Of a stretch of 32,000 nt of DNA, positions 419-4,109 are shown piece by piece; position 1 is the first letter of the stretch; each line of letters begins with the position of its first letter. Made by a program: the position numbers and the translations under genes. Under the pieces are notes generated by a model. It was not told the DNA's origin. It did no database searches and was given only the letters and a program-made list of their open reading frames with translations. The DNA lies in contig DGGR01000038.1 of NCBI GenBank assembly GCA_002392285.1, forward strand, positions 20,840 through 52,839, given 5' to 3'. This DNA comes from Verrucomicrobia bacterium UBA3869 (lineage in GTDB: Bacteria; Verrucomicrobiota; Verrucomicrobiia; Opitutales; UBA9783).

Positions 419-811
419 ATGCGAATGAAAACGAATGAGATTCAACCGGAACAGATGTTGCACCAGATAGATGAATTGAAAGAGCGTTTGGATCGTTTGC
501 AGAATGTTTTTCATCAATTGAAATTAGATGCGTTCGATGAAAAATATTTAACAAAGGACTATATCGATGCGTTCATAGATTTTTTGCAAAAAACTGCTCC
601 CAACGAAAAGTATATGCTGAATGAATTAAAGTGTATGGCTTCGTTGTTGGACCAGAATAAGCAGCCGGTCGGCGTGGTTCCGGAAGGATTGAATGGTAAA
701 CAGATTCTATTAGCAGGCCATCAGGATCCGATTATGTCGGATCCTGAGAAGGCTCATAGTCAATGGACTTCTCGGTTGAAGTGCCGGATGCCCATGAAAC
801 GAATGATCTAA
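419..811 (+). CDS. hypothetical small, acidic, predicted-helical protein; first gene of a three-gene operon and a possible chaperone or partner of the two downstream paralogs
   Basis: 130-aa ORF. Its stop TAA (809..811) is 1 nt from the ATG of the next gene (TAAcATG). The sequence is rich in heptad-like charged helices (QIDELKERLDRLQNVFHQLKLDAFDEKYL). I recognise no family. Confidence 0.5.
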   Translation: MRMKTNEIQPEQMLHQIDELKERLDRLQNVFHQLKLDAFDEKYLTKDYIDAFIDFLQKTAPNEKYMLNELKCMASLLDQNKQPVGVVPEGLNGKQILLAGHQDPIMSDPEKAHSQWTSRLKCRMPMKRMI

Positions 812-812
812 C

Positions 813-2393
813 ATGGCTATTCCTCCAATTGGTATAAATCCTAATGCGGGTGTGGTTAGGGCCGTTATTAATACAAATTTAACGGAAGTTATTCAGAAAT
901 ATACTGATTTAAGTTCTGAATATAAGGTCATTCAAGATAATCTGCTGAAGCAATTAAATGATATTTTTAATACACACATCCAATACGATGCGCAGCGGCA
1001 TATTTCTTTTGCCGGCGACTTTGTAAAAAATATTTGCGTCGATAGCGAAGAGGCCAACAGAGCTTATAAGTTTTACGGCCTAAAGGTCGTGAATCAATTT
1101 AACCGCCTAGGTGATTACATCCTCCAAACAGATGACTTATTGGATCAATTGAGAGCCTTGCCTGAGGATACCCCAACCGATACTGGGATAGCACATCCTA
1201 AAATTGTTGACCTGGAAATAATCGAGAAGGCTAGCAATGAGGTTATAAAAGACTTTAGCCTGCGCTGCATTTACGATTATGATGCCATGGTTTGGATGCC
1301 CTATCAGGATGATTATCGTAAGGGGGTGCATGAGCAAATTGGTCCCAAAAACGATTACCCAACCTATGAGGATTTACGTCACGTATCGGTGGAGAAGAAA
1401 CGTCATCAAATTATTCAAGAACCGATAGAGATGATGCGGGAGGTGAACCTGCTGGATCGGTTGCGTGCTATCCGTGTTTATTACCAGATGGATAACGGGA
1501 AAAGTGATGCGGTTTACCCGAATGATGCAAGGAAGGGTTATCCTGGAATCAAGGAAGAGGTGGATGCTTTTCGATGGGAAATTGAAAAGTTTTATTGGGG
1601 ATATATATCAGACCGCGATGGAGCTGAATCCACGGTTCTAAAATTATTAGAAACGAAAGCATTGGCAATCCAATCTAATTTGTCGGATCTTAAAATACAG
1701 CTAGATACGTTTTCTTTTTATTCAGACTTTTTAAACCGTGCACTAGACGTACTTCATTCTTCCACTAAAAATCAAATCATGCCATATGGGGTTCGTTTCG
1801 CATTAACGTATTTGTGCGGTGGCCCAATGTATAGCTTGTTTAAAGATCAGGGGGTGCCATGCCTGGTTATTAAAAGCATTGTTAATGATACCTTTAGTCT
1901 AATTAAAGCTGATAAAGAAGGGATGAATTTTTTCTTTGGAGATGATGGAACTACCAAAAATTATAGAGGTAACGCTGCTTGTGATGCCCTATGGATGAAC
2001 AATCGATGGGTTATGAACATAGCAGGTGCTGTAGTCCCCAATGCTTATTGGTATTCGAAATCACGTAATGCAGATGGAATCTTTAACAAAGAAACAAAAA
2101 ACTTGGTTGATCCCTTTGTTTTACCCAAAAAAATTCAGTGTGAATTGGTAACACCTGAAAGTGTAAAAGCTTATCAAGATTTCAATACAACAGACAAAGT
2201 AACCGATGATGTTATTAAGTCGTGTCAGGAAGCTTTGCAGTCGAAGGTAAATTTTTGCACCCAATCGGTTGAGGCATTACATACCGATATCGATTATGTT
2301 TATCAAAAAATGACGATGTTTGATACCGCCAATAATACCTTTAATACTTGGATGACTGGCGTATGTGAACGCATTGTACAACGTATAAGTTAA
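813..2393 (+). CDS. hypothetical protein, tandem paralog A (526 aa), unknown family; candidate T3SS substrate
   Basis: Long ORF that is collinear with the next gene at low identity (NLLDRLRAIRVYYQ, FYWGYISD, MNFFFGDDGTTKN, DPFVLPKKIQCELVTPESVKAY). It has no TM segment or signal peptide. The N-terminus is MAIPPIGINPNAG and the C-terminal helix is rich in Ser, Thr, Asn and Gln. Confidence 0.8.
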   Translation: MAIPPIGINPNAGVVRAVINTNLTEVIQKYTDLSSEYKVIQDNLLKQLNDIFNTHIQYDAQRHISFAGDFVKNICVDSEEANRAYKFYGLKVVNQFNRLGDYILQTDDLLDQLRALPEDTPTDTGIAHPKIVDLEIIEKASNEVIKDFSLRCIYDYDAMVWMPYQDDYRKGVHEQIGPKNDYPTYEDLRHVSVEKKRHQIIQEPIEMMREVNLLDRLRAIRVYYQMDNGKSDAVYPNDARKGYPGIKEEVDAFRWEIEKFYWGYISDRDGAESTVLKLLETKALAIQSNLSDLKIQLDTFSFYSDFLNRALDVLHSSTKNQIMPYGVRFALTYLCGGPMYSLFKDQGVPCLVIKSIVNDTFSLIKADKEGMNFFFGDDGTTKNYRGNAACDALWMNNRWVMNIAGAVVPNAYWYSKSRNADGIFNKETKNLVDPFVLPKKIQCELVTPESVKAYQDFNTTDKVTDDVIKSCQEALQSKVNFCTQSVEALHTDIDYVYQKMTMFDTANNTFNTWMTGVCERIVQRIS

Positions 2394-2399
2394 TATAAT

Positions 2400-4109
2400 A
2401 TGGCCATTAATATTAATGAAATTAATCCTGTTTTGCATCCGCAGATTGATGCGCCCCAGCCCAATAATCCTATTGTCCCTCATAATGATATTATTGACGA
2501 CTATGATGCTAAGTTTAAAATCAATGGGACCTTTGATCAGGAGGAGAAGAAAATATTCGTTCGTTTAAATGCGATTGTTGAAGAGAATTATGATATTAAC
2601 AACCTGGACAAATTGATTGTTAATTCTCGTATTATGCCGGGTGCTCCTAAAGAGGACGATAAAAATTTTATCGATCATTACTGTCGTGAAGGATATAACG
2701 CGTATCTGTTTTACGTTAAATGGATTATTGGGGTCATTCACACAATCCATAATACGATTAAAACTGCTCGAGGTATCGTTGAGGAGCTTAAGCAGATGCG
2801 TAATGCTGGAGCTACGACTGCACAGCTTCTTGTAAAGGTACCTGAAAAATTTGATTCCTTAAAGTGGTATGCAGAAACGGCCATGAAGGATGCCCTCGAT
2901 GAGTTTAGGCAATATCTGCAGTACAATAACGACACAAAGCAATGGGATTTGATGACAGATGAGGTTGATGCTAAACAGCTAAGAAAGTACAGCGGGTATG
3001 CGAGTTTGCAGGCATTGCGTGAAACAAGGGTTCCATATACGGATACTATGCGTCAATATCCCTCCTGGAAATTACCGATTTTTCGTTCGTTGAATTTACT
3101 GAGCCGTTTGGAGTTTATTCATTTTTATTATAAAAGAATCATGGTGGATAATGACCCTGATTACCTAGTGTTTCCTACTGATCCTGCCACCGGGTATCCT
3201 TGCGTACCTGATAATGGAAAGGGTGAGGGTACTTCGTCTGAGCATCAGGGGACGATGGAGCTGTTTTATATTGGTTACTTGGTCGACAAATTTGGTGCGT
3301 TAAATGCGCCTGCAACCTTTTTAGATGTTAAAGTCCGCGCATTGAGGTCGAATTTGGAATTATTGTCGCATTATATCAGTGCTTTAAATGTCTATTTGGA
3401 CTTTATTGCGCATGCAACTGATATGGTTAATGCTTCTCAGAACGGTGCAACTGATAAGGATAAACATCGTTTGGCGGATGCAGCTTATTTAGCATTAAAC
3501 TTTTTATTATCCAACAATATGTATTGCTTGTTTGAAGATAAATCAGGCAAGGCACTTTTGGTTTTAGAAAATCCAGATGATCTTGGAAAATTCATGTTGA
3601 TTACAACAGATATAACTGGAAAACGGTTTTTTTTGGGGGAAGATGGAACAGCAAATGGGAACGTAGGCGATGGAGGTATTGGGTTAAGGATTGACGAGAA
3701 TAACAAGCCTGCTGCCTATTCAGGCTATGCCTTAGTTTTTGAACAAACTCCTGCCAATTATTATACCGCTGGAAGTATGGTTAATGGGCATTATGATTCG
3801 AAAAAAGCTAAAATTGCTAGTCCTTTTAAACTCCCACCAAAATTGACTTGTACCAATGTATTAAAGAAAAGTGTTAAAGAATGGAATTCTTGGCACGATG
3901 CTAGCAAGATTACAGGTGATGTTACATCGTCCTGGATTAGCGCATTAAACAACAAAAGTGAATTCATTAATACTTCTATTCAAAATACGAATACGGAAAT
4001 CACGGATTCCCAAACGACGATTAATAATTATGATTCGGAAGCGTCCAATATACGTAAAAAAGCTGAAGAAATATACGGTAAGGTAATCGACAAATTCCCT
4101 GCTCGGTAA
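2400..4109 (+). CDS. hypothetical protein, tandem paralog B (569 aa), unknown family; candidate T3SS substrate
   Basis: Starts 6 nt after paralog A. Matching blocks are NLLSRLEFIHFYYK, FYIGYLVD, KRFFLGEDGTANGN and SPFKLPPKLTCTNVLKKSVKEW. The N-terminus is MAININEINP. The C-terminal stretch SSWISALNNKSEFINTSIQNTNTEITDSQTTINNYDSEASNIRKKAEEIYGKVIDKF looks helical. Confidence 0.8.
   Translation: MAININEINPVLHPQIDAPQPNNPIVPHNDIIDDYDAKFKINGTFDQEEKKIFVRLNAIVEENYDINNLDKLIVNSRIMPGAPKEDDKNFIDHYCREGYNAYLFYVKWIIGVIHTIHNTIKTARGIVEELKQMRNAGATTAQLLVKVPEKFDSLKWYAETAMKDALDEFRQYLQYNNDTKQWDLMTDEVDAKQLRKYSGYASLQALRETRVPYTDTMRQYPSWKLPIFRSLNLLSRLEFIHFYYKRIMVDNDPDYLVFPTDPATGYPCVPDNGKGEGTSSEHQGTMELFYIGYLVDKFGALNAPATFLDVKVRALRSNLELLSHYISALNVYLDFIAHATDMVNASQNGATDKDKHRLADAAYLALNFLLSNNMYCLFEDKSGKALLVLENPDDLGKFMLITTDITGKRFFLGEDGTANGNVGDGGIGLRIDENNKPAAYSGYALVFEQTPANYYTAGSMVNGHYDSKKAKIASPFKLPPKLTCTNVLKKSVKEWNSWHDASKITGDVTSSWISALNNKSEFINTSIQNTNTEITDSQTTINNYDSEASNIRKKAEEIYGKVIDKFPAR

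Follow-up and report, generated by a model that had tools for sequence, protein, structure and literature searches.

A candidate hydrophilic translocator family of the type III secretion system in gut Opitutales

The three-gene operon and its products

The operon described here lies in a stretch of DNA of 32,000 nucleotides (nt), called the window, from Verrucomicrobia bacterium UBA3869 (contig DGGR01000038.1, positions 20,840 to 52,839 of the forward strand). Its two larger products belong to a previously unannotated protein family, named X in this text, that is probably a hydrophilic translocator of a T3SS (type III secretion system). All three genes are on the plus strand. The first, g1 (419–811), encodes a small protein of 130 amino acids (aa) that is proposed to be a dedicated partner of X; an alternative start (ATG at 425) would yield 128 aa, a length found in relatives. 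It is followed by g2 (813–2393; 526 aa), the upstream X paralog, and g3 (2400–4109; 569 aa), the downstream X paralog. The arrangement g1-X-X is termed the triad. The g1/g2 junction reads TAAcATG, with a 1-nt gap, and the g2/g3 junction consists of TAA, tataat and ATG, with a 6-nt gap. An earlier note on this DNA, made from the sequence alone, had described three tightly coupled, co-oriented genes, and the open reading frames (ORFs) and junctions were exactly as claimed.

A pyruvate:ferredoxin oxidoreductase (PFOR) gene, within which the window begins, is divergent from g1 (start codon at ca. 222–224, minus strand), and ruvB is located 78 nt after g3. The intergenic region between the PFOR gene and g1 (225–418, plus strand; sequence read) is presumed to be the promoter region of the operon. 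Sigma-70-like promoter matches (e.g. 316–344) and terminator matches were present at a frequency not above that of shuffled sequence. Because the sigma-70-like matches did not exceed the shuffles in frequency, the operon promoter was not located.

The products of g2 and g3 were aligned by BLASTP with 25% identity across 452 aa (E 2e-35), and both N-termini have the form MAI..INP. On this alignment the two are true paralogs, as the note had held in calling them collinear and of low identity; all of the sequence blocks that it quoted are present. Both proteins are hydrophilic and acidic (isoelectric points of 5.2 and 5.65). No transmembrane (TM) segment was found in either, the maximal 19-residue Kyte-Doolittle mean being 1.16 for g2 and 1.09 for g3; TM segments occur in neighboring proteins instead. 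Searches of g2 and g3 against Pfam (E ≤ 1) and NCBIfam gave chance-level matches only, so the previous statement that the proteins had neither a TM segment nor a nameable family was upheld. In a Pfam scan of 61 X members (E ≤ 0.01), the matches were scattered coiled-coil noise; no LcrV, IpaD, EspA, gatekeeper or ruler model was among them, and no enzymatic or eukaryote-like domain was found in the Pfam scans. Searches of the Protein Data Bank (PDB) sequences using g2, g3 and a 61-member profile returned nothing below E 0.08.

Structural models were made with AlphaFold2. That of g3 was confident (mean pLDDT 88.5, pTM 0.78; 61-sequence alignment), and that of g2 was moderate (mean pLDDT 77.5, pTM 0.56; 16 sequences). 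The g2 model features a disordered N-terminus, long helices at residues 79–114, 271–315 and 465–524, and a beta-rich domain at 343–430. In the g3 model, a disordered segment (1–28) precedes helices at 44–60, 96–135 and 148–170 and a beta-hairpin at 171–186; a large insert, made up of a helix (303–346) and a beta domain (385–471), is followed by the C-terminal helix (506–564). Residues 1–20 of g2 and residues 1–20 and 22–28 of g3 had pLDDT values below 50. The layout common to both models is thus 20–28 disordered residues, a helical N-terminal region, a beta-hairpin, an insert with a 45-residue helix and a beta-rich domain, and a C-terminal helix. The last measures 60 aa in g2 and 59 aa in g3, in agreement with the terminal helix of ca. 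60 aa that had been predicted along with the shared MAI..INP start. The long N- and C-terminal helices are conserved across the whole family.

The N-termini of X are rich in Ser, Thr, Ile, Val and Pro family-wide, and a Y-x-Y-P-x-P motif is recurrent in them. In many members it takes the form Y-x-Y-P-(V/I)-P and is located at about residues 8–16, within the disordered N-terminus; the variants in g2 and g3 contain INP. The motif may serve, specifically in this family, in export or in recognition by a chaperone. The lengths of X range from 526 to 1765 aa. At one related locus (L002, 10001–17877; also L003; loci of relatives are given L numbers throughout), the two X paralogs have grown to 858 aa and 1765 aa. 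In the shorter copy, the N-terminal half has an Ala/Glu-rich coiled-coil insert of ca. 300 aa; the C-terminal two-thirds of both copies are conserved.

The models were compared to the PDB using Foldseek, and the best 50 of 159 (g2) and of 106 (g3) matches with E ≤ 10 were examined. No significant match was obtained for either model (best E 0.1–0.4, nothing with E < 0.1). Entries for flagellin, FlgL or FlgK constituted ca. 27 of the 50 matches listed for g2 and ca. 33 of the 50 for g3, none of them significant; the flagellar matches had probabilities of at most 0.77, target-normalised TM-scores of 0.35–0.42, and root-mean-square deviations of 14–18 Å. We read the modeled architecture of X as axial-substrate-like, with homology not proven. 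A phage structural origin of X was also considered and was rejected, as Foldseek against viral structures (BFVD) returned nothing.

Relatives of the operon and their gene neighborhoods

Word-indexed searches of 5.8 billion proteins yielded 5 and 9 homologs, and a further search of this type with the 61-sequence profile yielded zero additional proteins. When 1.84 billion representatives at 50% identity were scanned exhaustively with HMMER, only 93 relatives were obtained (68 with E ≤ 1e-30). A scan of metagenome contigs with a 4-sequence alignment gave 4 loci and no new locus type. Four relatives come from named assemblies, all of them metagenome-assembled genomes (MAGs) of Opitutales or Verrucomicrobia, and three of the four originated in horse faeces or rumen (yak rumen and a rumen “RUG” MAG). 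Given this taxonomy of the relatives, the host is a gut Verrucomicrobiota bacterium and not a chlamydia-like one. A chlamydial host, which the earlier note had entertained, was accordingly rejected: the closest MAGs are Opitutales or Verrucomicrobia, the lineage is Opitutales, and the SctV protein of the window scored highest against an LcrD-named SctV structure. All sampled lineages have X as a core gene, in one copy or two. No prior description of X was found in the literature that was searched on tip proteins of Opitutales or Verrucomicrobia T3SSs. By sequence and fold search, X is a new family, functionally of a known kind.

The decisive evidence on the affiliation of the triad is the gene context in distant relatives. 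At L021, a g1 homolog (hidden Markov model (HMM) E 3e-18) is followed in order by X (620 aa) and an LcrH/SycD chaperone (110.7 bits with TIGR02552, exceeding the cutoff of 104.8). Next come a 373-aa and then a 329-aa protein, with an 85-aa ORF between them. The 373-aa protein has three strongly hydrophobic segments and is homologous to the SseC-like protein of L018 (E 1e-21 to 1e-23), which itself scored 36.9 bits with Pfam SseC vs. a gathering score of 30.2. The 329-aa protein is homologous to the product of an SseD-like gene in the window (phmmer E 2e-7 to 4e-5). The same five-gene order is present at L025, where g1, X and a tetratricopeptide-repeat (TPR) protein are followed by a 402-aa protein with TM segments and a 305-aa SseD-like protein; the latter is likewise homologous to the SseD-like protein of the window (E 9e-6 to 3e-5). 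At L024, a complete triad is followed directly by a TPR chaperone and a 601-aa SseC-family protein. Because the triad there stands ahead of the chaperone and translocator genes, L024 ties the arrangement in the window to the translocon module. The order X, LcrH-like gene (E 1e-26 to 1e-29), SseC-like gene is found at L018/L026/L030, L015–17 and L019/20. X is located directly 5′ of an LcrH-type translocator chaperone in six independent lineages, and in the six lineages with the X-LcrH-SseC adjacency, X identity is below 35% and the outer flanks differ. An association of X with the T3SS translocon module is very probable. It had been suggested that co-occurrence of homologs with T3SS loci be looked at, and the X genes of relatives do indeed adjoin LcrH/SycD and SseC/SseD-like genes.

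At L015 (1–14028; also L016 and L017), a genuine flagellar cluster (fliF, fliG, fliH, fliI, fliJ-like, flgD, flgE, fliL, fliM, fliN, fliO) has X at its end, starting 2 nt beyond fliO. The genes fliPQR and flhBA are not downstream of the end of this cluster, and a STAS-domain gene comes after the X-LcrH-SseC-like module. Since the module is appended 2 nt after fliO, the translocon genes seem to share a transcript with genes of the flagellar basal body and hook. At L019 (98–5680; also L020), the opposite strand carries a g1 homolog with a second X copy behind it, and a Lipase_3-domain gene (496 aa), a candidate effector, is directly upstream of the X-LcrH-SseC-like operon.

The triad itself is present in at least nine diverged lineages (window/L001/L010; L002–4; L005/6; L007–9; L011; L012; L013/L029; L022; L027), mostly beside a PFOR gene. 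In the lineage of the window, the triad is separated from the chaperone and translocator genes; for the other triad-only loci, the separation from translocon genes is known within the 4–23 kb sequenced. At L007 (9096–9533; also L008 and L009), a gene for a CesT-family class I T3SS chaperone is located ca. 4 kb downstream of the triad. This gene is independent evidence for T3SS substrates in triad-bearing lineages.

Injectisome genes had been reported in the window, and they are real. The export-gate protein SctV (698 aa) is encoded at 19324–21420 on the minus strand. It was matched by Pfam FHIPEP (E 2e-235) and scored 926 bits with the hrcV/SctV model TIGR01399 (cutoff 692) vs. 666 bits with the FlhA model, under the cutoff of 772. 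Its best PDB relative was 7alw, a “Low calcium response protein” (808 bits), ahead of SsaV and FlhA. Directly upstream of sctV, at 21417–21758 on the minus strand, is a gene for a 113-aa SctY-like TPR protein (NCBIfam T3SS_chap_SctY E 2.6e-15 and 56.8 bits, below the cutoff of 70; Pfam TPR_19). Divergent from this pair and monocistronic is the SseD-like gene (21873–22685, plus strand), which encodes a putative minor hydrophobic translocator (SctB-like, 270 aa) with one hydrophobic segment at ca. 142–162; its match to NCBIfam translocon_SseD (E 5.4e-9) was below cutoff. By homology, this gene is the ortholog of the last gene in the complete operons of L021 and L025. The T3SS genes of the window are scattered: the sctY-like gene and sctV stand alone, without sctX, and the genes after them encode aminoacyl-tRNA synthetases (class II and class I E/Q domains in Pfam).

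Sequence divergence was calculated between the window and two close relatives. For g2 and g3, the nonsynonymous divergence (dN) was 0.07–0.14 and its ratio to the synonymous divergence (dN/dS) was 0.14–0.41; for flanking housekeeping genes, the respective ranges were 0.006–0.07 and 0.02–0.15. The dN of g2/g3 was therefore ca. 2–20 times that of the flanking genes. The triad genes are real and under purifying selection. The beta domains are hypervariable: nucleotide identity to L010 (a horse-faeces MAG) was 63–74% for that of g2 (nt 1801–2100) and 51–72% for that of g3 (nt 3601–3800), compared to 85–96% in the surroundings of these patches. The segments that code for the terminal helices were 94–96% identical to those of L010 and 89–96% identical to those of L001. 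These hypervariable patches suggest diversifying pressure on an exposed domain, and conserved assembly helices combined with a variable, outward domain are a pattern known from flagellins and exposed tip proteins. In a rough neighbor-joining (NJ) tree, the upstream (“up”, with g2) and downstream (“dn”, with g3) copies of the triad-type loci formed two clades across 8 lineages. These separate clades point to one old duplication with both copies retained, and the retention argues for non-redundant roles. The X pair of L024 arose independently in this tree.

Homologs of g1 are 107–156 aa in length. Their N-terminal part is conserved, and their basic C-terminal tail is invariant. The tail has the pattern ..K.K/R..P..R.I-COOH in g1 and ends in ..P.(N/K)R(M/I/L)I across homologs. 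A g1 homolog was found directly 5′ of an X gene at L001–L013, L019–L022, L024, L025 and L027–L029 (g1 HMM E 1e-16 to 1e-57); at L019/L020, it precedes the second, divergently oriented X copy. All loci that have a g1 homolog have an X gene directly downstream of it. No match of g1 to LcrG was obtained in Pfam at E ≤ 1, its matches to Pfam and NCBIfam were at chance level only, so that no known family was matched, and a search of PDB sequences with the g1 profile gave no match below E 0.08. At the nucleotide level, g1 is the most conserved stretch of the region (96–99% identity to L001 and L010), with a dS of 0.065–0.12 vs. 0.19–0.63 in neighboring genes. An RNA element that might explain the low dS was sought in g1, with no Rfam match and folding-energy z-scores of -0.2 and -1.2. 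Candidate causes of the low synonymous divergence are mRNA constraint, recent exchange and an overlapping signal. In the variable linker of g1 there is also an inverted repeat with perfect 11-bp arms (TCAGGATCCGA-ttatg-TCGGATCCTGA, 721–747), which is not a typical terminator because a T-run is absent after it.

The proposed role of X and its alternatives

No core parts of injectisomes are less conserved than the tip and hydrophilic-translocator proteins, which are untraceable across T3SS families and essentially undefined outside Proteobacteria. In a study of T3SS evolution, tip and translocon proteins were left unplaced, similarity being undetectable, and the chlamydial system had only a proposed tip, CT584 (Abby & Rocha 2012, PMC3459982). 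We consider it probable that X is the hydrophilic translocator of the gut Opitutales T3SS, equivalent by analogy to LcrV/PcrV (a tip) or EspA/SseB (a filament), with g1 as an LcrG-like partner. The specific role as tip or filament is favored by a modest measure, on the basis of gene position and architecture. We infer that X is secreted, that it is located at the needle tip, and that it interacts with g1.

The gene order of L021 and L025 is that of lcrG-lcrV-lcrH-yopB-yopD in Yersinia (order read on pCD1) and of pcrGVH-popBD in Pseudomonas. In each case, a small protein is followed by a hydrophilic protein without TM segments, an LcrH/SycD TPR chaperone, a TM translocator, and a second translocator; g1 occupies the lcrG slot, and X occupies the lcrV slot. 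The LcrV-like position (small gene, X, lcrH-type chaperone, hydrophobic translocators) was found at L021, L025 and L024, and in the window only g1-X-X is contiguous. The LcrG-like position was found in the window as well, with g1 directly 5′ of X and coupled to it by TAAcATG. A further likeness to Yersinia is that the sctY-like gene precedes sctV in the window as yscY precedes lcrD, and that SctV is closest to the LcrD-named structure. The operons differ in that X is duplicated in many lineages and that the operon of the window clade is split: the triad is at the PFOR locus, the SseD-like gene adjoins sctY-sctV, and neither the chaperone nor the major translocator is inside the window. Of the earlier note's comparison of the small upstream gene to lcrG, the positional part stood, both in relatives and in the window, and kinship in sequence with LcrG was undetectable. 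Similarly, its proposal of a T3SS tip or hydrophilic-translocator candidate gained support from the translocon context in relatives, but not the kinship with LcrV, IpaD and SipD, for which HMMs, hhalign and Foldseek gave nothing.

Resemblances to other distal proteins were also considered. The translocators that adjoin X are SseC- and SseD-like, which recalls EspA and SseB (LEE4, sepL-espA-espD-espB; SPI-2, sseA-sseB-sscA-sseC-sseD). In SPI-2, a small helical chaperone gene, sseA, precedes that of the hydrophilic component, sseB. A polymerising, flagellin-like helical core is plausible for X. EspA and SseB are helical hairpins of ca. 190 aa without a large inserted alpha/beta domain. In IpaD, SipD and BipD, an N-terminal helical region is combined with long helices in the center and a mixed alpha/beta domain at the distal end, a general design that X shares. 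Unlike them, X had no match to their Pfam models, and none of them was among the Foldseek matches listed; in the order ipgC-ipaB-ipaC-ipaD, moreover, the tip gene is last.

Several results weigh against the assignment of X as a hydrophilic translocator. The 61-member profile of X was aligned to Y. pestis LcrV by hhalign with a probability of 0.9%, and that of g1 to Y. pestis LcrG with a probability of 5%. X has no detectable relation to LcrV in sequence or fold and is 1.6–5 times longer; indeed, its length (526–1765 aa) is above that of known tip proteins. X also lacks a match to the EspA family of Pfam. The previously suggested Foldseek comparison did not recover the fold of LcrV or IpaD, only weak flagellin, FlgL and FlgK neighbors, and none of LcrV, PcrV, IpaD, SipD, BipD and EspA was among the 50 matches listed for either model. 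There is no LcrH or SseC gene in the window, and the triad, which adjoins the PFOR gene and ruvB, is separated from the T3SS genes of the window by 15 kb. All of the relatives of X are metagenome-derived. Finally, effectors are sometimes encoded inside translocon operons, and the position of X alone therefore does not prove a tip role.

Under the proposed role, the disordered, Ser/Thr/Ile/Pro-rich N-terminus of X would act as the signal for T3S export. Once X had passed through the needle, the long helices conserved in its N- and C-terminal regions would bundle, and X would assemble at the needle's distal end with the hypervariable, central beta-rich domain facing outward. This distal structure would be the scaffold on which the SseC-like and SseD-like translocators, both hydrophobic, insert into the target membrane. 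The product of g1 would be a dedicated cytoplasmic partner, like LcrG/PcrG, CesAB or SseA, that keeps X unassembled and delivers or regulates it at the export gate via the invariant basic C-terminal tail. The old duplication was kept in every lineage of the window clade, suggesting that the distal structure has two components (hetero-oligomeric or stacked).

X offers a concrete, testable family of tip or filament candidates in Verrucomicrobia, with a confident model unlike the three known tip/filament types, a conserved small partner protein, and natural single-copy and two-copy variants. Opitutales of the herbivore gut are likely to be contact-dependent interactors with eukaryotic cells, be they protists, fungi or host epithelium.

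The main alternative, which we regard as unlikely, is that g2 and g3 are translocated effectors with g1 as their chaperone, encoded in or near a translocon operon in the manner of ipaA, sipA and sptP. Several observations would fit effectors: fast protein evolution (dN/dS as high as 0.41, from 0.14) with hypervariable patches, variation in length with coiled-coil expansions (858 and 1765 aa at L002), repeated duplication, a triad unlinked from T3SS genes in most lineages, and a neighboring lipase-domain gene, as at L019. However, the position of X is fixed directly 5′ of the LcrH-type chaperone in the six independent lineages, and its long terminal helices are conserved family-wide. X is also core rather than patchy, being present in one or two copies in every sampled lineage, and the enzymatic or eukaryote-like domain of an effector was not found in it.

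The structural neighbors of X raise a different question. Flagellin, FlgK (HAP1) and FlgL (HAP3) were the best, non-significant Foldseek neighbors of both X models, and X, like flagellar axial proteins, has a disordered N-terminus, long terminal helices and a hypervariable middle domain. The order of elements in flagellin (ND0, ND1a, ND1b, beta-hairpin, insert, C-terminal helix) resembles that in g3, and flgN-flgK-flgL, a small gene and then a tandem pair, recalls the triad. It is doubtful, if conceivable, that X is an axial protein derived from flagellin or hook-associated proteins and forming the filament or tip at the distal end of the Opitutales injectisome, with the L015–17 module possibly co-expressed with, or even exported by, a flagellar-type T3SS. 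If the flagellin-like architecture were true homology, it would bear on the flagellar origin of the distal structures of injectisomes, and X, if so derived, would be a surviving structural link from the filament and junction proteins of flagella to the tips of injectisomes.

It is quite improbable that X is an outright flagellar protein, i.e., a highly diverged hook-associated or filament-like protein exported by the flagellar T3SS, with g1 as an FlgN-like chaperone. The structural neighbors and the order of elements would fit such a protein, as would the start of X 2 nt after fliO at L015–17 and a weakly FlgN-like ORF in the window beside a glucosaminidase gene (Pfam E 2e-4, below cutoff). 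On the other side, none of the 61 X members was matched by Flagellin_N/C, Flg_bb_rod or Flg_bbr_C, whereas the genuine FlgE of L015 was matched easily, and hhalign of X against E. coli FlgK and FlgL gave probabilities of less than 1%. The partner genes of X, unlike those of flagellar axial proteins, are injectisome translocon genes; even at L015, the genes after X are of injectisome-specific types, for an LcrH/SycD chaperone and for an SseC-like protein with TM segments. The export gate in the window is SctV, not FlhA.

A cell-associated regulator, either a gatekeeper (SctW-like) or a needle-length ruler (SctP-like), is less probable still. Gatekeeper genes do adjoin translocon operons in some systems (e.g. 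sepL-espA-espD-espB), and the variation in length of X by insertions in the N-terminal half recalls ruler proteins. But the gatekeeper and ruler family models were absent among the Pfam matches of X, and a hypervariable beta domain is hard to square with a cytoplasmic regulator. Rulers and gatekeepers are normally encoded with the apparatus genes, as X never was in the loci seen. Least credible is an operon foreign to the T3SS (e.g. a cytoskeletal or surface-layer pair) with a merely coincidental translocon adjacency: the triad does have housekeeping neighbors (PFOR, ruvB) in the window and most lineages, but adjacency to LcrH- and SseC-like genes recurs in six diverged lineages (X identity below 35%, differing outer flanks), and X has neither a signal peptide nor a TM segment, so that another export route is not evident.

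Other genes of the window

A gene for a PilT/T2SSE-family ATPase (338 aa, 22682–23698) is convergent with the SseD-like gene. At 12371–13072 on the minus strand is a glucosaminidase-domain gene; its match to Pfam Glucosaminidase exceeded the cutoff, and the TftA model matched it in part. Divergent from it is a 150-aa ORF (13182–13634, plus strand), the one with the sub-threshold FlgN match in Pfam. This pair (12371–13634) could be a T3SS or flagellar peptidoglycan hydrolase and its chaperone, or it could be unrelated. Long GreA proteins are typical of Chlamydiae and other bacteria of the Planctomycetes-Verrucomicrobia-Chlamydiae group, and the GreA homolog of the window (26021–27829) is 602 aa in length, with an N-terminal extension of ca. 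450 aa and the GreA domains at residues 454–597.

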